NCBI GenBank assembly: GCA_003144275.1
Contig: NJBF01000028.1
Span: 30,001 to 62,000, forward strand
DNA: 32,000 nucleotides
Source of the DNA: Candidatus Heimdallarchaeota archaeon B3_Heim
GTDB lineage: Archaea > Asgardarchaeota > Heimdallarchaeia > Hodarchaeales > Hodarchaeaceae
Reading direction: 5' to 3'
The notes beneath the pieces were generated by a model. The model worked only from the letters and a program-made list of their open reading frames with translations, was not told where the DNA came from and ran no database searches. Below, one piece after another: positions 11,336 through 24,072 of the stretch; the stretch's first letter is position 1, and every line of letters begins with the position of its first letter. A program made the translations under genes and the position numbers.

Positions 11336-12109
11336 ATGCATGATGTAGACCCCCTTGCCTTACCTTTCGAATTTCAAGGTACTGATGAAAATAAAAACAT
11401 TAGTTGTCTATTATTACACTCTTTTACTGCCTCACCAAGTGAAGTTCGTCCATTAGGCCTGTATCTTCGAAATAAAGGTTTTTCTGGGATTGCTCCCTTG
11501 CTTCCTGGTCATGGAAGTGTACCAGAAGATCTTGGAAACACCACATGGTTAGATTGGTATGCTGTCGCCCGTGATTCCTTATACTACTTGAAGGATTTAT
11601 ATTCACATGTTTTTGTTATTGGAGTTGCCCTTGGATCTGTACTCGCTACAATTTTGGCTGCTTCTCATCTTAGTGTAAGGATTAATGGTCTAATTTTAAT
11701 TTCCCCAAGTCAGCATTCTCCCTCAACACTAGTGAAAAATATTCTTCCCTTTGTAAAATTCTTTAAGAAGGATTTTGCCATGGTTGAAGAGAATGTGAGT
11801 GACGATCTTCGTGACCAGGGGCAATTTTTCTATTCCAAACGTCCTACTACAGCTCTAATTGAATTATACAGAGTAATTGGTTTTACTAATCATCGATTAG
11901 AAAATATTTTTCAACCTACTCTTGTTGTTAATACCCAAACTGCTGAAGGATCAGTTGATTTCATTTTTGATAAACTTACCAACGCGAAAGAAAAGAGAAA
12001 GTACACGATGAACACTTCCTCTTTACGCTGGTACTTAAATTCCTCAGAAGGAAAACCTGCTTTTAATGAAATTGCAGATTTTATGAAAAATACCATTAAA
12101 ATAGGTTGA
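11336..12109 (+). CDS. Alpha/beta-hydrolase (carboxylesterase/monoglyceride-lipase-like) homologue lacking the catalytic Ser
   Basis: CLLLHSFTASPSEVR, APLLPGHG, WLDW are typical of Est30-like esterases. Nucleophile elbow is GVALG (11621-11635). ATG 11336 preferred over GTG 11327. Confidence 0.8.
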   Translation: MHDVDPLALPFEFQGTDENKNISCLLLHSFTASPSEVRPLGLYLRNKGFSGIAPLLPGHGSVPEDLGNTTWLDWYAVARDSLYYLKDLYSHVFVIGVALGSVLATILAASHLSVRINGLILISPSQHSPSTLVKNILPFVKFFKKDFAMVEENVSDDLRDQGQFFYSKRPTTALIELYRVIGFTNHRLENIFQPTLVVNTQTAEGSVDFIFDKLTNAKEKRKYTMNTSSLRWYLNSSEGKPAFNEIADFMKNTIKIG

Positions 12110-14595: not shown

Positions 14596-15054
14596 GTGAT
14601 AATTATGGACCTAAGTGCGAAATATCTCTATGGATCGGGTTTTCTAATAGGAGTATGGTTTATTGTATCCATATTTTCGATTAATTCTTCGTTGTTATTT
14701 AGTGACATCACTTCATCATACTATTATTTATTTTTCACCGCAGGGCCTCTTCCCTTCATTCTGATTGGATTATCCATTTCCACCATGGGAATATATTTCT
14801 ATGTTCTTTTATTCACAAAAGAACGAATTAGAGGATTAAACTTAGAGTTTGAAGCATCTCCTGATCTGAAAACATTCCGTGTAGTTAAAGATCATTCGCC
14901 CAATCGACTTACGAAGAAAGAAATCCCAGACACCGCCTATTGTGGCGCATGTGGTCGTGAGGTTCACAAACCCTTTCGATGTGCAGCTTGTGGACAATTG
15001 TTGTGTGCTACACACATATTAGCAGGTGATCATCGTTGTAAGGAGGGAATTTAA
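14596..15054 (+). CDS. Two-TM membrane protein with C-terminal AN1-type zinc finger
   Basis: CGACGREVHKPFRCAACGQLLCATHILAGDHRC = C-x2-C-x9-C-x2-C-x4-C-x2-H-x5-H-x-C. Alternative start ATG 14605. Confidence 0.85.
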   Translation: MIIMDLSAKYLYGSGFLIGVWFIVSIFSINSSLLFSDITSSYYYLFFTAGPLPFILIGLSISTMGIYFYVLLFTKERIRGLNLEFEASPDLKTFRVVKDHSPNRLTKKEIPDTAYCGACGREVHKPFRCAACGQLLCATHILAGDHRCKEGI

Positions 15055-15726
15055 TTGGCAGAAGAACCCGAGTGGAAAAAAGGACTAGAAAAACGAAATT
15101 TATTAGATAAGTTGAACCTATCCGTGCAGGAACTCTCGGAGTTAGGTATAGGGTGGTTAATAATGGCGGCCATACTTATATATCTCAGAAGAGATAGGCT
15201 CTCAGGAAGTCTGTTTGAATTTGAAATTTTCTTACTAGTCTTACTGGTCAGCTTTTTCACGCACGAATTAATGCATAAATTTACTGCTATTCGATTTGGA
15301 GCTCGTGCATACTTCCGGATATCAAAAGAAGGATTAATAATAACACTTCTATCTGTTATTATTGGATTTCCTATGCTTGCGGTAGGTGCAGTATTTTGGT
15401 GGGGAGAAGCGGCATCCTCTGTTGGTATAAGAGGTCGTGTTTCGGCAGCGGGCCCAATATCGAATTTGATACTGATCGGATTTTCATATATGCTTGTCGG
15501 TATAGGTTTCGCCATTCTACCTTCTAACCTAGAATTAGCATCTATTGTTCTACAAGTGGGGATAACGGGTGTATCATTAAATATTTTCATCGGACTCTTC
15601 AATCTTTTACCACTTGGTGTATTTGATGGTGCTAAAGTACTAGATTGGGATGGAAGAATTTGGATTGCTCTTATTGGATTATTCTTATTCTTTGGTTTCA
15701 TTGGTGGTGGTTTTGGATTATTCTAA
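15055..15726 (+). CDS. Site-2 protease (M50) family intramembrane Zn metalloprotease
   Basis: HELMH, AGPISN, FNLLPLGVFDG. TTG start preceded by RBS AGGAGG (15041-15046). Confidence 0.88.
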   Translation: MAEEPEWKKGLEKRNLLDKLNLSVQELSELGIGWLIMAAILIYLRRDRLSGSLFEFEIFLLVLLVSFFTHELMHKFTAIRFGARAYFRISKEGLIITLLSVIIGFPMLAVGAVFWWGEAASSVGIRGRVSAAGPISNLILIGFSYMLVGIGFAILPSNLELASIVLQVGITGVSLNIFIGLFNLLPLGVFDGAKVLDWDGRIWIALIGLFLFFGFIGGGFGLF

Positions 15727-18307: not shown

Positions 18308-19096
18308 TTAAGACGGTTTACGGGCATATGCATAAAAAACAGGCATAAAAGACATCATTTCTGATGGTTTAGTTAGTGATATGCTTTGTTGGAGATCTTT
18401 CAACTTTGATCTTAATTTTCCTGGAAGAAACAATTTTAAGGAGTTAATTTCGTCATTGTACATCTCTTTTACAATATCAGAGATTTGAACGACTGATTGA
18501 AGTCCGACTGTTGCCTGAAGTCCAGCTAGAGAAAACAATTGAGGTAATTTTCTACCTACATTTGGATCCGATGCAGAGAGAGAAGAACATAGCAGTTCCT
18601 TCCATTCTTCACCATATGGATGATCTATTCGTCCACCATAATCGGGTTCAGCCAAACAAGCGATCCATCCACCTGGTTTGGTTACGCGATAGAATTCTTT
18701 AATCAGCTGAACTGGATTGTCGAGCCATAAAAGAAGGTAATTACACAATGTTACATCAAAAACATCATTTTGGATTGGTAGTTTGTTCCCGTCGCCTTGA
18801 ACGAGTGATGAATGATTATTTTTCCTACAATATCCTAAAGCTATGGGATTAAAATCAATTCCAAGAATATCTGCCTTACTTAGAAGATCATTTAGCTCTT
18901 GGAGTAGTGCCCCTGTTCCTGAGCCAACTTCTAGGATTTTTTCAGCCTTGAGTAAATTTATTCTCCTATAAAGATAGTTTCTTGTAGATTTAGTCCAGCT
19001 GAGTTGTCTCCTGTACAAATTATCAAAAAAAGACGCCTTTTCGGTAGAGAGAAGGATATCATTTGGTGTTAATCGTTCGCTTTGCTTTCGGGACAT
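18308..19096 (-). CDS. Class I SAM-dependent methyltransferase
   Basis: ILEVGSGTG, GIDFN, GDGNKLP...FD, KPGGWI. ATG 19096 with RBS GGGAGG; overlaps the radical SAM gene by 28 nt. Confidence 0.88.
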   Translation of the reverse strand: MSRKQSERLTPNDILLSTEKASFFDNLYRRQLSWTKSTRNYLYRRINLLKAEKILEVGSGTGALLQELNDLLSKADILGIDFNPIALGYCRKNNHSSLVQGDGNKLPIQNDVFDVTLCNYLLLWLDNPVQLIKEFYRVTKPGGWIACLAEPDYGGRIDHPYGEEWKELLCSSLSASDPNVGRKLPQLFSLAGLQATVGLQSVVQISDIVKEMYNDEINSLKLFLPGKLRSKLKDLQQSISLTKPSEMMSFMPVFYAYARKPS

Positions 19097-20391
19097 ATAT
19101 ATTCCTCCCGAGTATAACTCAAGGGACATCCAGCTCCACATAGGTTAAGTTGGCCACAGGTCTGACATTCGTCAGGAACATTGCTTTGGGTACGTATTTC
19201 AATAGAAAGGGGATGATTCCATATTTTTTCCCAAGGATCCTTTAGAATGTTACCTAGTCCTTCGTAATAGCTCTGACATGGGATAACAGTTCCATTAGGT
19301 TCGATGGCCATAGCTAGGTGAGAAGCTGAACATCTTTTAACTCCAAGCCCCAAATTTACAGGGTCAATATCACAATAACGGGTTGGAGTATACCAAATGA
19401 ACTCCATTCCATAATCATCTGCTGAATCTTGAATTCGTTCCAGTACTGGTAATAGTTCTCTTTCGTTCAACGCAAGTTTAGAAACATTTTTCCCTTTACC
19501 CGCATAAATTATAGAATTACAGGCAAATTGTTCTACTTCTAGTTCATTTAATAGTCCTATGGTATCAATTATGGTTTCTACATTTAACTTAGTAAGGGTT
19601 GTATTGGTTAATGTATAAATCGGAGTTTCCACAGCATTTTTTATACCTGCAATGGTTTCATTCCAAGCTAAATCACTACCCACCATTTGATTATGAATGG
19701 ATTCATTTGCACTTTCAAGAGTAATTTGAAAATGATCAAGACCGGCTTCAACAAGGTTGTTAACATAATCTTGCTCTTTTAATTTCCGACCGTTGGTAAT
19801 AAGTCCAGTTACGATACCAATAAGTTCAGCACGTTCTATTAGCTGTGATAAATCTTGTCTTAGTGTCGGTTCCCCACCTGTAAATGTCACATGAGGTATT
19901 GAAATCTCCCAAAGTCTTTCCAGTATATCTTTCCATGTATTGGTTTCTAGTTCGGACGCATTTGGAGATTCTGTTTGATTGTAACAGTGTGAACAAGTAT
20001 TATTACAACGATAAGTTAATGCAAGATCCATTCTGAGAGGAGCTGTAAGATTTAATTCTGCAATATTAGATTCTTCTACATTTAATGAATGTATAGGGCA
20101 TATATCTTCCGTAGTTGAAAGGGAGGTGATCATGTCCTTTAGTGCATTAAGATCAGTTTTTGCTTGATGATCTGTCACGCGATAGAGAGATTTCAGCTCA
20201 TTGAGGATTTTCTGCTCTGGAGTTCCATCTAGAATTCTTTCAACGAAGAACGTTGCTGTTTGGTTTAGTTGTAAAATCCTAGATGCATTAATAACAAGGA
20301 GCCCATTTTCACCCTGTTTTCGTAAATGGAGACGAATCTCACCGAATTGTCCTTCTCGCTGATGAATTAATGAAGACTTCTCTTGGTTCAT
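19069..20391 (-). CDS. Radical SAM/SPASM-domain maturase with N-terminal PqqD-like RiPP recognition element (RRE)
   Basis: RRE pattern GLLVIN...LNQTATFF...G...ILNEL...YRV...AKTDL. CNNTCSHC (CxxxCxxC), FTGGEP, TNG. SPASM C-x12-G-x4-C...C-x2-C-x5-C-x3-C-x10-C. True start is probably ATG 20391, 2 nt after the upstream stop. Confidence 0.92.
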   Translation of the reverse strand: MNQEKSSLIHQREGQFGEIRLHLRKQGENGLLVINASRILQLNQTATFFVERILDGTPEQKILNELKSLYRVTDHQAKTDLNALKDMITSLSTTEDICPIHSLNVEESNIAELNLTAPLRMDLALTYRCNNTCSHCYNQTESPNASELETNTWKDILERLWEISIPHVTFTGGEPTLRQDLSQLIERAELIGIVTGLITNGRKLKEQDYVNNLVEAGLDHFQITLESANESIHNQMVGSDLAWNETIAGIKNAVETPIYTLTNTTLTKLNVETIIDTIGLLNELEVEQFACNSIIYAGKGKNVSKLALNERELLPVLERIQDSADDYGMEFIWYTPTRYCDIDPVNLGLGVKRCSASHLAMAIEPNGTVIPCQSYYEGLGNILKDPWEKIWNHPLSIEIRTQSNVPDECQTCGQLNLCGAGCPLSYTREEYICPESKAND

Positions 20392-20393
20392 CG

Positions 20394-21923
20394 TTATCGA
20401 CCACCACCTGCGCACGCGCACGCACAGCCTGCGCAAGCGCAAGCACATCCTCCACCGCCTGATCTACCCCGTCCTCTCCCAATTGGTTGAACTGGAGGAG
20501 GATAGCTTCTTCTTGTTACTTTTTCTTGAAATGATCGACCTCTTGGAACCCAATACCATGAATGATAGTGATAGGTATAATACCAAGGAATATATTCTAG
20601 ATTCTGTGTTACCTCGATATCAAATTCTGGTTGATAATTTTCATCTAATACAGCCCAATACCAGGCTTCAGTTGTTACCGTTTCAAGATCCTCACTTTGC
20701 TTTGAAGTTATTTGCAATACTGATTTGTCTATTAATGATTCATAGAATTGAACTGTTTTATCGTAAGAGTACCCTTTCATCCTACCTCGAGTTAATTTTA
20801 CAAGAGCCGCGATAGAGCTAATCAAATCCTCCTCCTTAATACTAAACTCATCACGTAACGATTGCAAGAGAATTTTCTGATATTTCTTTAGATAACGAAG
20901 TGATGATCCTTCCATCAACTGAGGATCGGGATATTCTTCCGATAATGGTTTAATTAGATCTTTTTCGATTAAGGAAAGAATGATCATAGAAGTTGTGATT
21001 TCAACGGGCTTTTCCAATATCACAGCAACCATTTCTCGCGGGAGATCTGTTCTTGGTCCCGCTGTTGGAACAGATACAAAGGGAGGTACATAATCGAGAA
21101 GACGCTTTTCCAGTTTTATTTTTCTGGAACGACGAACTATGAAAGAACCAATTACTGCAATAATTATGAATACAACAACTCCACCAATTACTAACCCAAG
21201 AATAATTTCCTCTGCAGTAAGTGGAATTCCTTTAAACCATTTAACCCCCTCTTTTGGAAAAGATATACCATATTTATACTGTTGAGATGGGGAAGCGGTT
21301 GGTTCATGCCATTCGTGTACTTTACGGCCATTTTGAAGAAAAAAGGTGCGAGTGGGGGCTTTTTGATGATATTTTGTATAAGTTGTATCGTCAACAGTAC
21401 CTGGAAATACCATTCGTGTTGTCAGATTAACAGTTCCAGTTGTATAAGCTGCACCCCACCATGTATTCCCAAACTGACTAGAAGCCATATCTGATTCTTC
21501 TGTATCCCCAAATACCATGTATGGTTGATTACCTTTGACATGGAGCGTCCCTCTATCAGAAATTGCATACGAATGAAGGTGAATTTCCACACCTACATCG
21601 ATAACTTCGCTTTCCCGAATATCATAGAGTGGTTGTCCGTCAAGATCAGCTGATATACTACTCAGCTCATAATGCTTGTTTGGAAATCCTATATCAATTA
21701 TATCAATATCCTGTCCAGATCCTTCTACTTTAAAAGTGATCCAGTATTCAATATCAGCCGAACCATCTAAGTTAATTGTGACCTCTACTAATTCATCTGG
21801 GACTGAAAAATAATAATTCTGAATATTACTTTCACTAGATTCTCCTACAGTAATTATATTGAAGGGTATTAATAGGAGAATAAGGAGTAAATAGATCCGT
21901 GCGAGGGTATTGACTTTTCTCAT
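20394..21923 (-). CDS. Single-pass membrane protein (signal peptide, extracellular beta-rich domain, TM, cytoplasmic domain; DUF2207-like layout) with a Gly/Cys-Ala-rich C-terminal tail
   Basis: Signal peptide MRKVNTLARIYLLLILLLIPF. TM IILGLVIGGVVVFIIIAVIGSFIV followed by RRSRKIK. Ends GRGRGRSGGGGCACACAGCACACAGGGR*. Confidence 0.88.
   Translation of the reverse strand: MRKVNTLARIYLLLILLLIPFNIITVGESSESNIQNYYFSVPDELVEVTINLDGSADIEYWITFKVEGSGQDIDIIDIGFPNKHYELSSISADLDGQPLYDIRESEVIDVGVEIHLHSYAISDRGTLHVKGNQPYMVFGDTEESDMASSQFGNTWWGAAYTTGTVNLTTRMVFPGTVDDTTYTKYHQKAPTRTFFLQNGRKVHEWHEPTASPSQQYKYGISFPKEGVKWFKGIPLTAEEIILGLVIGGVVVFIIIAVIGSFIVRRSRKIKLEKRLLDYVPPFVSVPTAGPRTDLPREMVAVILEKPVEITTSMIILSLIEKDLIKPLSEEYPDPQLMEGSSLRYLKKYQKILLQSLRDEFSIKEEDLISSIAALVKLTRGRMKGYSYDKTVQFYESLIDKSVLQITSKQSEDLETVTTEAWYWAVLDENYQPEFDIEVTQNLEYIPWYYTYHYHSWYWVPRGRSFQEKVTRRSYPPPVQPIGRGRGRSGGGGCACACAGCACACAGGGR
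20409..20447 (-). repeat. (Cys-Ala)3-Gly-(Cys-Ala)3 coding repeat
   Basis: Minus strand: tgt gct tgc gct tgc gca ggc tgt gcg tgc gcg tgc gca. Synonymous third positions vary, so conservation is at the protein level. Confidence 0.9.
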
Positions 21924-22086: not shown

Positions 22087-24072
22087 TCAGCGTAGATCTT
22101 TGATTATTTCTTTGGTAGTAGTCGTGATTTGTTTGACGGAGCTTGTAATATTGTCTGAGTTTGTGGTTACATTATTTTTGAAATTATCAACCGAGGAATC
22201 AATACTACTCTGAACCTCTTCAAACTGAACATCGATTTTTCTCCTTTGATCATCTATATATTCACGTTGATCATGAGTTTTTCCTATGAAATTATCAGAA
22301 GTATTTTGCACTTCAGTGAAGAATTCAGCAAATCGCTCTTGTAGCGAGGAGCTATATTTATCTAATGTATCCTGATGATCAGTAATTTTCTGTGATGTAT
22401 CAGACCGAAATTGAATAAGGGAATTTTTATGCTCATCTTCCAAGCTTCCTACTAATACTGTTGTTGATTCCTCACTATCCTTCACCGCTTGATCGAGTTT
22501 ATCATTGGTAATCGATACTATGTTTTGAATAGCAACCAGTCCATCTTGTTCTATAGTTCGAATTTGTTTTCTTAGATCATCGAATGCGGCCGTACTGGAC
22601 CGTTTTATTTCGGAATTCTTGGTCTTGATGACTTCACGATTAGTTTCTACCACTGTATCAGCAGTAGGGGCTATTGATGAAACTGTTGTAAGTAATTCGC
22701 TCTGTTTTGACTGTAAAGTGCGTCTCACGTCTGTTAATGTTATTTCAATATTTTTTTCTTGACTTGTTTGAATTTCCTTGAACTGCTGACTTATTCCTTC
22801 TTGTAGGTCTCCAAGAGTAGTTTCATGTTTAATCAAGACATCTTTCATTCCATCTTGGGATTTTTTAAAGAAGCCCATTAAGGATCCATTAAGGTCTGAT
22901 GTTGTATCTTCTAACTTGGATTTGGTTTTTACACCAAATTGTTCAAATGAGCTATTGATATTTGCGTACCAGTTTTCAAATGCTTTTGTCAATGTCTCAG
23001 AGGTTCTAAGACGCTTTTTACTAAAATCTGAAGAAACACGTGAGAGTGAAGAAAGTATTTGTTCCTCTAATTGACGAAAACCTGATTTGAGCGAATTTTC
23101 AAATTCCGTGGTGACTTTAGATTGCAGCTCTTCATTTGTTTTTAGTGCAGATATAAAAGATTCGAAAACATTTTCCTTGATATTACTAATGGTCTGTTTT
23201 TGTTCCTCCTGGTATTTCTGCCACTCACTATAATATCCATCAACTCCCTTCTCAATTTTTGTTTTTACTCCTTCCCTCTCTTCTTTAATAATTTCGATAA
23301 CTCTTTGCTGAGACTCATTTAGTAATTCTTTTTGACGAATAAGATTATCATCCAGACGTGCTTTAAGACCATCAATTCCTGCGAGTAAATCTTCTTTAGC
23401 AATTTCTAGTCTGGAAACAGATTGTCTCAAAGTATTCGCAAAAACATTGTCCAGTTCATTCTCTTTAGCATCACTAATTTGTGTCACACGATTATTAAAT
23501 TCATCCAACGCTTGAAGAAAGGATGAGGCTACGCTATCTGACATCTCCCCAATATTTGCATTTTCTCTCTCGACGGTACTAACGAATTCCTTTTGTACGT
23601 CCGCTAACTTGTTGGAAATTTGATCTTGAAATTCCTTGATCTGTTTATACTGATGAGAATAGATATCATCCAATCCAGTATTCACTTTACCAGCCATTTC
23701 CCCATAGATTTGGGAAATGTCCTCTTCTTGCTTTTTTGTAAGTGAATTTAATTGTTTTTGCAGAGTAACTGTCCCTTTCTGCAATTGGTCAAGTAATTTT
23801 TCTAAACGAGAGCCGAAATCTCCTTTCTCTGATTCAATATCGGTTTTGAGACCTTTCAAGTTATCTGTTAAATCACTAACAGTTGTTGCCAAATTGGCTA
23901 TTTGCGATAAAATATCCGTTTTACCTTGGTCAATATTTCGTGAAACAGAACTAGTTTGTTTCTTAATGTCTTGTTGAAAATCCTTCACTCGATTCTCATA
24001 TTGACCACCCTCACTTTCAAGCTTCGCAAGATGATCTTTTATTACATTTACTTTGTTATCTTGTTCAGACAT
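22087..24072 (-). CDS. Long alpha-helical coiled-coil/apolipoprotein-like protein (661 aa)
   Basis: Rich in E/K/Q/S/D, one Pro, no Cys, no TM segment or ATPase motif, 11-residue hydrophobic periodicity. RBS AGGTGA. Confidence 0.85.
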   Translation of the reverse strand: MSEQDNKVNVIKDHLAKLESEGGQYENRVKDFQQDIKKQTSSVSRNIDQGKTDILSQIANLATTVSDLTDNLKGLKTDIESEKGDFGSRLEKLLDQLQKGTVTLQKQLNSLTKKQEEDISQIYGEMAGKVNTGLDDIYSHQYKQIKEFQDQISNKLADVQKEFVSTVERENANIGEMSDSVASSFLQALDEFNNRVTQISDAKENELDNVFANTLRQSVSRLEIAKEDLLAGIDGLKARLDDNLIRQKELLNESQQRVIEIIKEEREGVKTKIEKGVDGYYSEWQKYQEEQKQTISNIKENVFESFISALKTNEELQSKVTTEFENSLKSGFRQLEEQILSSLSRVSSDFSKKRLRTSETLTKAFENWYANINSSFEQFGVKTKSKLEDTTSDLNGSLMGFFKKSQDGMKDVLIKHETTLGDLQEGISQQFKEIQTSQEKNIEITLTDVRRTLQSKQSELLTTVSSIAPTADTVVETNREVIKTKNSEIKRSSTAAFDDLRKQIRTIEQDGLVAIQNIVSITNDKLDQAVKDSEESTTVLVGSLEDEHKNSLIQFRSDTSQKITDHQDTLDKYSSSLQERFAEFFTEVQNTSDNFIGKTHDQREYIDDQRRKIDVQFEEVQSSIDSSVDNFKNNVTTNSDNITSSVKQITTTTKEIIKDLR

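Follow-up and report, generated by a model that had tools for sequence, protein, structure and literature searches.

When a radical S-adenosylmethionine (SAM) enzyme of the peptide-maturase type is encoded with no precursor peptide beside it, the question arises of what the enzyme modifies. Such an enzyme was found in the window, the whole 32,000-nucleotide stretch of contig NJBF01000028.1 from Candidatus Heimdallarchaeota archaeon B3_Heim that was analyzed. It is the middle gene of an operon of three genes on the minus strand at 18308-21923, which encodes a membrane protein with a Cys-rich C-terminal tail (the tail protein), the radical SAM enzyme and a methyltransferase. Comparison of the locus across genomes pointed to the tail itself, and the radical SAM enzyme probably modifies covalently the (CA)3-G-(CA)3-GGGR tail of the whole membrane protein. 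The three genes were located as follows, with RRE standing for the recognition element of RiPPs, peptides made on the ribosome and modified after translation, and ORF for open reading frame.

20394-21923, minus strand: tail protein of 509 aa, DUF2207-like and crossing the membrane once; proposed as the substrate (ORF, homologue search, Foldseek).
19069-20391, minus strand: RRE / radical SAM / SPASM enzyme, 440 aa (Pfam, alignment A2 of 38 orthologues, AlphaFold2 model, PDB folds).
18308-19096, minus strand: class I SAM methyltransferase, with the likely start at 19096 and the mechanical ORF start at 19141 (Methyltransf_11 match, GGAGG).

The junction between the tail gene and the radical SAM gene reads cga-TAA-cg-ATG with a gap of 2 nt, and the start of the radical SAM gene was therefore placed at 20391, which corresponds to M20 of the mechanical ORF beginning at 20448 and at which all orthologue alignments begin as well. 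The methyltransferase ATG at 19096 is preceded by GGAGG and is the most likely start as judged from the sequence; from there the gene overlaps the end of the radical SAM gene (stop codon 19069-19071) by 28 nt. The tight coupling of three minus-strand genes, noticed in a preliminary description of this DNA, was confirmed by the DNA of both junctions. In the genome of the window (3.95 Mb, 36% GC, 94% complete), one such tail and one such radical SAM enzyme were present, each in single copy. The closest homologues were labelled Hodarchaeales, Promethearchaeota (Asgard) or 'Candidatus Thorarchaeota', so that the probable Asgard origin proposed in the preliminary description is reasonable. The ORF also agreed with the preliminary description in encoding a 509-aa membrane protein with a six-Cys tail: the protein ends in ...GRGRGRSGGGGCACACAGCACACAGGGR, with the layout GRGRGRSGGGG-CACACAG-CACACAG-GGR, and contains six Cys in total, every one of which lies inside the tail.

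The conservation of this C-terminus was evaluated in homologues. More than 500 homologues were collected by a word-indexed protein search, which favours proteins sharing tail words, yet the matches span 78-98% of the query. Nearly all of the best 120 homologues, whose overall identity was 26-76%, ended in CACACA(CA)0-2-G-CACACA-GGGR. In alignment A1, with a mean column identity of 36%, the columns C493-R509 were invariant or nearly so, F465 was nearly invariant (at least 90%) and P475 was invariant. Outside the tail, identity within the family was only about 30%. The motif F465-x3-V-T-x2-S/T-x-P was present in 104 of the 120 homologues, 13-21 residues (median 16) ahead of the first Cys, and was joined to the core by a linker of 34% Gly, 28% Ser and 11% Arg. 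By analogy, motif, linker and core resemble the recognition, spacer and core layout of RiPP precursors. The two elements in the window were:

20493-20531, minus strand: leader-like motif F465-x3-V-T-x2-S-x-P-P-P, the proposed RRE recognition sequence (conserved in A1 and homologues).
20397-20447, minus strand: core tail C493-R509, CACACAGCACACAGGGR, the proposed modification site (invariant across domains; 72 DNA versions).

The identical 17 residues in 72 loci were encoded by 72 distinct DNA strings, with each synonymous codon used at each position and a minimum pairwise DNA identity of 0.67. Since every locus carried its own DNA version and the synonymous sites were saturated, the invariance of the tail reflected selection on the peptide, at each of its residues, and not a shared DNA cassette.

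The relation between the tail gene and the radical SAM gene was determined in other genomes. One genome per GTDB species was scanned, and at least 225 species with a relative of the tail protein were found, from which 80 loci with a flank of up to 10 kb per side were kept. These loci came from Asgard archaea (Hodarchaeales-like and Heimdallarchaeota), Methanomassiliicoccales, Chloroflexota (mostly Anaerolineae), Acidobacteriota, Aminicenantes, Zixibacteria, Cloacimonadota, Fermentibacterota, Planctomycetota, Armatimonadota and a deltaproteobacterial bin. Linkage of tail and enzyme had been suggested as a test in the preliminary description, and the outcome supported the proposal: of the 72 assessable loci, which came from Asgard archaea, Methanomassiliicoccales and about ten bacterial phyla, 63 had an orthologue of the radical SAM gene as the next gene downstream in the same orientation (tblastn 350-650 bits), with its start -54 to about +330 nt from the tail stop. 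An orthologue of the methyltransferase was detected in 50 of 65 assessable loci. In four loci (six including two at contig ends or weakly matched), a variant termed '3+4' was found, in which the tail is CACACAG-CACACACA-GGGR, two tandem tail genes are often present, the radical SAM gene lies upstream and the methyltransferase gene downstream. In all five genomes that lacked a linked radical SAM gene, a single strong orthologue was located at another site (E 1e-171 to 1e-198), and in one of the five a second tail gene adjoined this distant radical SAM gene. In two independent lineages, the distributions of the two genes agreed almost perfectly, as follows.

201 Asgard-phylum genomes: both genes in 70, tail only in 2, radical SAM gene only in 13, neither in 116.
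151 Anaerolineae genomes, at least 90% complete: both genes in 22, tail only in 0, radical SAM gene only in 0, neither in 129.

In Anaerolineae, the same 22 genomes carried the tail protein and the radical SAM enzyme (E 1e-165 or better), and within the genus of the window both genes were present in 6 genomes and neither in 4. These distributions bear on the explanation that the adjacency is mere inherited synteny. Nothing speaks for it beyond the common observation that gene order tends to be shared among relatives, and it is scarcely credible, as the linkage was held across two domains and about ten phyla with differing flanking genes, the genes co-occurred even when unlinked, and gains and losses matched within one genus.

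Nine of the 13 Asgard genomes with the radical SAM gene only belonged to one family of fragmented metagenome-assembled genomes (MAGs), and the linker/tail region appears to break short-read assemblies, inflating this count. In three genomes of the Asgard family f16 (G048, G057 and G101, loci L088-L092), the body of the tail gene and the tail were located on different contigs. The 'split' tail genes of this family were considered as real short forms and rejected, the genes being broken at contig ends. In a Methanomassiliicoccaceae MAG (L057:~11500-11690, plus strand), the tail (…HCACACACACACAGGGR) was out of frame with the gene body, owing to a frameshift or else to misassembly of the GC-rich linker.

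Sactipeptides and ranthipeptides are recognized by a short, free, leader-bearing precursor beside the maturase, and none was found here. As the preliminary description had noted, no small precursor ORF lies nearby: the genes are separated by a gap of 2 nt and an overlap of 28 nt, and the 163-nt spacer upstream of the tail gene contains plus-strand ORFs of 22 and 36 aa only, without Cys motifs. Across the loci, no gene-sized gap for a precursor was present between the tail gene and the radical SAM gene, and no small ORF was found to be conserved. Additionally, when proteins shorter than 279 aa were searched and scored on their last 50 residues, every match was a C-terminal fragment from the tail-protein family, and the fragments examined among these short matches all keep FT..VT..TNPPP. 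A standalone short precursor peptide was thus rejected, the short tail-bearing matches being fragments of the large protein; a conserved separate precursor had been named beforehand as the case that would speak against a whole-protein substrate. The NCBIfam models of repeat-peptide targets gave no match on the tail proteins.

The cassettes of other organisms contained further conserved genes, which were compared with the locus of the window. In bacteria and Methanomassiliicoccales, the gene immediately upstream of the tail gene encoded a protein of about 120 aa with two transmembrane helices and a C-terminal zinc ribbon (69 of 75 assessable loci; for example L021:9569-9925, plus strand). This protein ends in an invariant ...Y-Q-x-x-E-E-P-K-W. 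No such protein was found in the Asgard type-1 loci (those with the tail type of the window), and the best match in the genome of the window (E 0.0098) was a generic zinc ribbon without transmembrane helices. In Anaerolineae cassettes, a paralogue of the radical SAM enzyme without CxxxCxxC or SPASM Cys was encoded between the active radical SAM enzyme and the methyltransferase (for example L021:13007-14185, plus strand); in '3+4' cassettes the paralogue retains 4-5 Cys in the C-terminal (SPASM) region, and the cluster-less paralogue was also not found in Asgard type-1 loci. The system is small, comprising two or three genes, and the window holds the minimal Asgard form, with the tail protein, the radical SAM enzyme and the methyltransferase. 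Given this minimal form, the tail protein is the only partner common to all cassettes, which argues that the tail protein is the substrate. The position and invariant C-terminus of the zinc-ribbon protein could suggest instead that the true substrate is another product, either this EEPKW membrane protein or an unannotated micro-ORF. This is highly improbable, since the zinc-ribbon gene is absent from Asgard type-1 loci and from the genome of the window while the RRE-bearing radical SAM enzyme shares 45-50% identity with its bacterial counterparts, and since the distance from the tail gene to the radical SAM gene is -54 to about +330 nt, and 2 nt in the window.

A related enzyme with a different partner was also detected. 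This sister radical SAM enzyme (320-375 bits to the type-1 profile) was present in another 26 of the 151 Anaerolineae genomes and in many Asgard genomes. In all eight sister loci examined, which came from Asgard archaea and Chloroflexi (L095:2694-4886, minus strand; L096:4929-7115, plus strand; L098-L103), the radical SAM gene adjoined the gene of a 580-930-aa membrane protein ending in (A-C-H-S)n, e.g. ...ACHSACHSACHSACVHDACHSACV... These (ACHS)n-tailed proteins showed a weak TIGR04222 match and belonged to no named family. The (ACHS)n tails are formally CXXX repeats, and in Haft's ACGX-repeat and CXXX-repeat radical SAM systems SPASM maturases are paired with short-peptide targets that contain Cys repeats. 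In a quick IQ-TREE maximum-likelihood tree, the type-1 and sister enzymes formed separate clades with 100% support in the Shimodaira-Hasegawa-like approximate likelihood ratio test (SH-aLRT), each with archaea and bacteria, and the enzymes of the '3+4' variant formed a clade of their own. Enzyme lineage thus tracked tail type and not taxonomy, which is expected for enzyme and substrate. The proposal of the preliminary description that the substrate is a tail on a whole protein and not a free peptide was thus supported by adjacency, by the co-occurrence profiles, by the co-variation of enzyme and tail and by the lack of a free precursor.

The structure and topology of the tail protein were modelled. 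The AlphaFold2 model had a mean predicted local distance difference test score (pLDDT) of 81, with a disordered C-terminal end, and besides the motif and core given above the following parts were distinguished.

21846-21923, minus strand: N-terminal signal peptide or signal anchor, residues 1-26 (AlphaFold2 helix 2-26; AxA-Q-like signal-peptidase sites in bacterial homologues).
21255-21809, minus strand: extracytoplasmic beta-sandwich, residues 39-223 (AlphaFold2 pLDDT above 94; Foldseek).
21102-21215, minus strand: transmembrane helix, residues 237-274, then RRSRKIK (AlphaFold2 helix; basic cluster after the hydrophobic stretch).
20652-21038, minus strand: cytoplasmic helical domain, residues 296-424, of DUF2207_C / TIGR04222 type (AlphaFold2; weak matches in relatives).

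In the relatives, either one or three transmembrane helices follow the ectodomain. From this and the AlphaFold2 model we infer that the tail lies on the cytoplasmic side, where it would be reachable by an oxygen-sensitive iron-sulfur (Fe-S) enzyme, in agreement with the cytoplasmic placement made in the preliminary description. Neither Pfam nor NCBIfam contained a family matching the tail protein, even when E values as high as 10 were allowed. In Foldseek, the top clusters of the AlphaFold Database were DUF2207 proteins (E 1e-16 to 1e-9), and relatives of the tail protein gave sub-threshold matches of 12-17 bits to DUF2207_N and DUF2207_C (Pfam PF09972 and PF20990). Against TIGR04222 (cut-off 43 bits), a bacterial type-1 relative scored 19.3 and a type-2 relative 38.1, and the window protein gave no match. 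The tail protein may be read, from its modelled fold, as a distant relative of DUF2207 and not as a Pfam member. To our knowledge, no molecular function has been worked out for the DUF2207-like class. The fold of the ectodomain (residues 39-223) resembles the N-domain of M1 aminopeptidases, ribophorin I and the N-domains of DUF2207 proteins. The match to ribophorin I of the human oligosaccharyltransferase extended over the whole length with a low TM-score (template-modelling score); ribophorin homologues have been reported in Asgard archaea.

The layout of a leader-like motif, a linker and a C-terminal core is that of a RiPP precursor, and the Arg/Gly-rich linkers could be protease sites, so the 509-aa protein could be regarded as a giant precursor whose modified core is cut off as a small RiPP. 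This is very unlikely: no protease, transporter or immunity gene was conserved in the cassette, the first 440 residues form a conserved and well-folded membrane protein that is itself under selection, and no export route is encoded for a tail that would lie in the cytoplasm.

The radical SAM enzyme showed the domains expected of a peptide maturase. Pfam matches were obtained to PqqD (PF05402; 25.4 bits, cut-off 23.4), Radical_SAM (PF04055; 85.7 bits) and SPASM (PF13186; 39 bits, cut-off 21.5). The PqqD-like RRE, the CxxxCxxC motif and the seven-Cys SPASM region of the preliminary description were upheld by Pfam and by invariance in the 38 orthologues of both domains (A2), and were located as follows.

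20113-20370, minus strand: PqqD-like RRE, a winged helix, enzyme residues 8-93 (PF05402; four strands and three helices in AlphaFold2; HLR, LNxTA).
19984-20007, minus strand: CNNTCSHC, the radical SAM [4Fe-4S] motif, C129/C133/C136 (invariant in the 38 orthologues).
19126-19374, minus strand: SPASM region with seven invariant Cys (PF13186; invariant A2 columns).

In A2, C129, C133 and C136 (CNNxCxHC) together with C340, C354, C372, C409, C412, C418 and C422 were invariant, as were HLR, a motif in the N-terminal part, and LNxTA, which is typical of PqqD-like domains. The radical SAM superfamily is characterized by CxxxCxxC, which ligates the SAM-binding cluster in a partial TIM barrel, and the SPASM subfamily (PF13186 / TIGR04085) by 7-8 C-terminal Cys that serve two auxiliary [4Fe-4S] clusters. 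From these residues, three [4Fe-4S] sites are predicted in the cytoplasmic enzyme. The AlphaFold2 model (predicted TM-score 0.88) consisted of the winged helix (residues 8-93), then a barrel, then the SPASM region. The best PDB fold matches were SuiB (TM-score 0.63-0.65 over about 450 columns) and SkfB (0.65/0.73), followed by PqqE, CteB and anSME, and a PDB sequence search agreed with these matches to RiPP maturases. Of the solved structures, SuiB and SkfB, RiPP maturases with the same three-domain build, are thus the nearest to the predicted fold. Among NCBIfam models, 75 matches were obtained and none reached its cut-off: the best was PqqE (130.7 bits, cut-off 381), StsB scored 79.5 bits (cut-off 625), TIGR04340 was matched weakly (62-100 bits, curated cut-off 400), and TIGR04463, the CrpC family, was not among the best 25 matches. 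Nor was the cut-off reached for SkfB, MftC, AlbA, PapB or ACGX. By its sequence the enzyme can be assigned to the radical SAM, SPASM and RRE-fused maturase classes as a member of an unnamed SPASM family. The methyltransferase matched Methyltransf_11 (72.5 bits) and Methyltransf_25 (62.1 bits), indicating a class I, Rossmann-like enzyme, and reached no NCBIfam equivalog (BioC 65.7 bits, cut-off 185). Complex prediction of the radical SAM enzyme (A2) with tail residues 440-509 (A1), run without controls, gave a median interface score (ipSAE) of 0.23 against a mark of 0.32 and was counted neither way.

The system was compared with characterized enzymes that act on Cys-rich substrates. CrpC, an RRE / radical SAM / SPASM enzyme of Methanococcus voltae, installs thioethers (ranthionine) on the whole 28.8-kDa protein CrpA, as determined by mass spectrometry (PMC13692751, 2026). 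The window shares with CrpC/CrpA an archaeal enzyme of this build, the seven-Cys SPASM domain and a neighbouring large Cys-rich protein, and the product of CrpA is possibly metal-related (PMC13692751). Differently, CrpA is soluble, and its leader-like N-terminal region is accompanied by ten repeats of 17 residues that contain C-x-x-Q/D, whereas the tail protein is integral to the membrane and has a single short core, (CA)3G(CA)3GGGR, at its C-terminus without acidic or amide acceptors. CrpC belongs to TIGR04463, whereas the enzyme of the window reaches no NCBIfam cut-off, and the cassette of the window includes a methyltransferase in addition. In the StsB/StsA and BlaB/BlaA systems (PMC10288494), StsB joins C-x-C-x-C to Gly C-alpha in a nested hairpin. 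The C-x-C-x-C motif, which is the donor in StsA, and small residues (Gly) a few positions downstream are shared with the window, and an RRE is needed for full processing of StsA. Unlike the tail protein, StsA is a free precursor, short and with only three Cys, its RRE (StsC) is a separate protein, and the system is found in Actinomycetota.

In QhpD/QhpC, where QhpC is the gamma subunit of quinohemoprotein amine dehydrogenase, and in anSME with the sulfatases, SPASM radical SAM enzymes act on Cys of substrates that remain proteins afterwards (PMC5682303). Unlike the tail protein, QhpC and the sulfatases are soluble enzyme subunits with known catalytic roles, the acceptors are Asp/Glu (QhpC) or Cys is converted to formylglycine (anSME), and neither a membrane substrate nor a repeat core is involved. 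A bioinformatic proposal of whole-protein modification has been made for oxidative enzymes that depend on multinuclear non-heme iron (MNIO, DUF692) with TIGR04222 membrane proteins (PMC12452194). These proteins likewise have a DUF2207_C / TIGR04222-type domain, an unstructured Gly/Ser-rich tail containing Cys and a linked RiPP-type enzyme. In contrast to the window, MNIO enzymes use oxygen-dependent multinuclear iron, the tails are variable and predicted to be periplasmic, the association is loose, with the enzyme lacking from a third of the genomes, and the proteins come mostly from Actinomycetota; here an anaerobic radical SAM enzyme, an invariant, predicted cytoplasmic tail and a near-obligate association are found. 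By analogy, the cassette would work most like CrpC/CrpA and QhpD/QhpC, which make protein-borne thioethers.

The literature on the tail and its enzyme was searched as well. Nothing was found on CACACAGGGR, nothing relevant linked CACACAGGG with radical SAM, the DUF2207 literature held nothing on radical SAM, and the Asgard RiPP literature held nothing on the tail and its radical SAM enzyme. No paper or curated family model describing the pair of (CA)n tail and radical SAM enzyme was found. The statement of the preliminary description that no function of such tails is described still holds, but RiPP-type enzymes acting on whole proteins have ceased to be a new concept (QhpD; CrpC/CrpA, PMC13692751; MNIO/TIGR04222, PMC12452194).

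Based on these comparisons, the following course of modification is proposed. The RRE would grip the motif F-x3-V-T-x2-S/T-x-P about 16 residues upstream of the core, and docking of the motif would present the core to the active site while the core is still within the membrane protein. The radical SAM enzyme would then abstract hydrogen and install covalent changes on the Cys/Ala/Gly core. Thioethers are tentatively favoured as the modification because RRE-SPASM enzymes most often make them on Cys-rich cores (PMC5682303) and because StsB and CrpC offer analogies; the core, with two C-x-C-x-C runs flanked and split by Gly, was likened to the donor run of StsA. The favoured products would be Cys S-to-C thioethers, either a sactionine to Ala/Gly C-alpha in a StsA-like CxCxC-GxGxG hairpin or a CrpA-like ranthionine. 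The co-transcribed methyltransferase would subsequently add at least one methyl, for which a remaining thiol and the strictly conserved terminal carboxylate are candidates. The product would remain on the membrane protein, since no protease or exporter was conserved, and may act as a rigid metal- or redox-active knob.

Several points weigh against covalent modification of the tail. The enzyme is roughly equidistant from all characterized SPASM families and reached no NCBIfam equivalog, and homology therefore does not indicate its chemistry; its PqqD score is barely over the threshold (25.4 vs 23.4). The core lacks the Asp, Glu, Asn and Thr acceptors typical of ranthionines, and C-x-C runs are classic metal or Fe-S ligands that need no covalent modification. 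The tail gene and the radical SAM gene are unlinked in one Asgard family and a few bacteria, and the bacterial cassettes hold the extra conserved parts absent here, namely the zinc-ribbon protein and the cluster-less paralogue.

The tail could be an unmodified metal or Fe-S site in the style of metallothioneins, with the tail protein as a partner, an anchor or a donor of clusters and metal for the radical SAM enzyme, while both enzymes act on a different substrate, for example a lipid, a small molecule or some other protein. Metals are often ligated by C-x-C-x-C, Cys is paired with His in the sister (ACHS)n tails, and the core of the radical SAM enzyme also resembles the lipid-acting GDGT-MAS; moreover, bufferins and CrpA are thought to handle metals (PMC12452194, PMC13692751). 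We nevertheless consider this explanation rather unlikely. The enzyme begins with an RRE and its fold matches those of peptide maturases over the full length, the leader-like motif stands at a fixed distance ahead of the core, and the Ala and Gly of the core are also absolutely invariant, which goes beyond the usual needs of metal ligation. Furthermore, the minimal Asgard operon has no other conserved gene for a candidate substrate, and metal binding can coexist with the covalent modification favoured here.

If the radical SAM enzyme modifies the tail, RiPP-type radical chemistry on an integral membrane protein would be widespread, extending over at least 225 species-level genomes and about ten phyla of both domains. 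For large proteins in archaea, CrpC/CrpA (2026), with a soluble protein and a different repeat, is the one precedent demonstrated by experiment. The 17-residue core is conserved so strictly that its modified form probably serves a precise purpose, as a structural element or as a cofactor, and working out this role would assign a function to some members of the large DUF2207-like class. A wider reading, in which our confidence is rather low, is that the cassette represents a modification of ancient origin, common to Archaea and Bacteria, by which the radical SAM enzyme and the methyltransferase crosslink the tail by a new chemistry with Ala/Gly acceptors to form a metal or redox cofactor, and which together with the (ACHS)n system would constitute a class of 'membrane-protein-embedded RiPPs' in anaerobes, among them the Asgard relatives of eukaryotes.

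The surroundings of the operon were also inspected. A scan for promoters and terminators, which was of bacterial type while the host is archaeal, gave counts not above those of shuffled controls. The sequencing runs listed as containing part of the stretch were DNA metagenomes, with small shares of it, and no RNA run was among them. A 661-aa, Cys-free, highly charged and repeat-rich protein, coiled-coil-like, is encoded at 22087-24072 on the same (minus) strand, 163 nt upstream of the tail gene; it is not conserved as a neighbour of the cassette in L001 and L002, two related loci of Hodarchaeales-like type. On the other side, at 14596-15726 on the plus strand, a 152-aa protein with a Cys/His zinc-finger-like C-terminus is followed, after one stop codon and in the same frame, by a 223-aa multi-pass membrane protein with HELMH, a motif like that of site-2 proteases.

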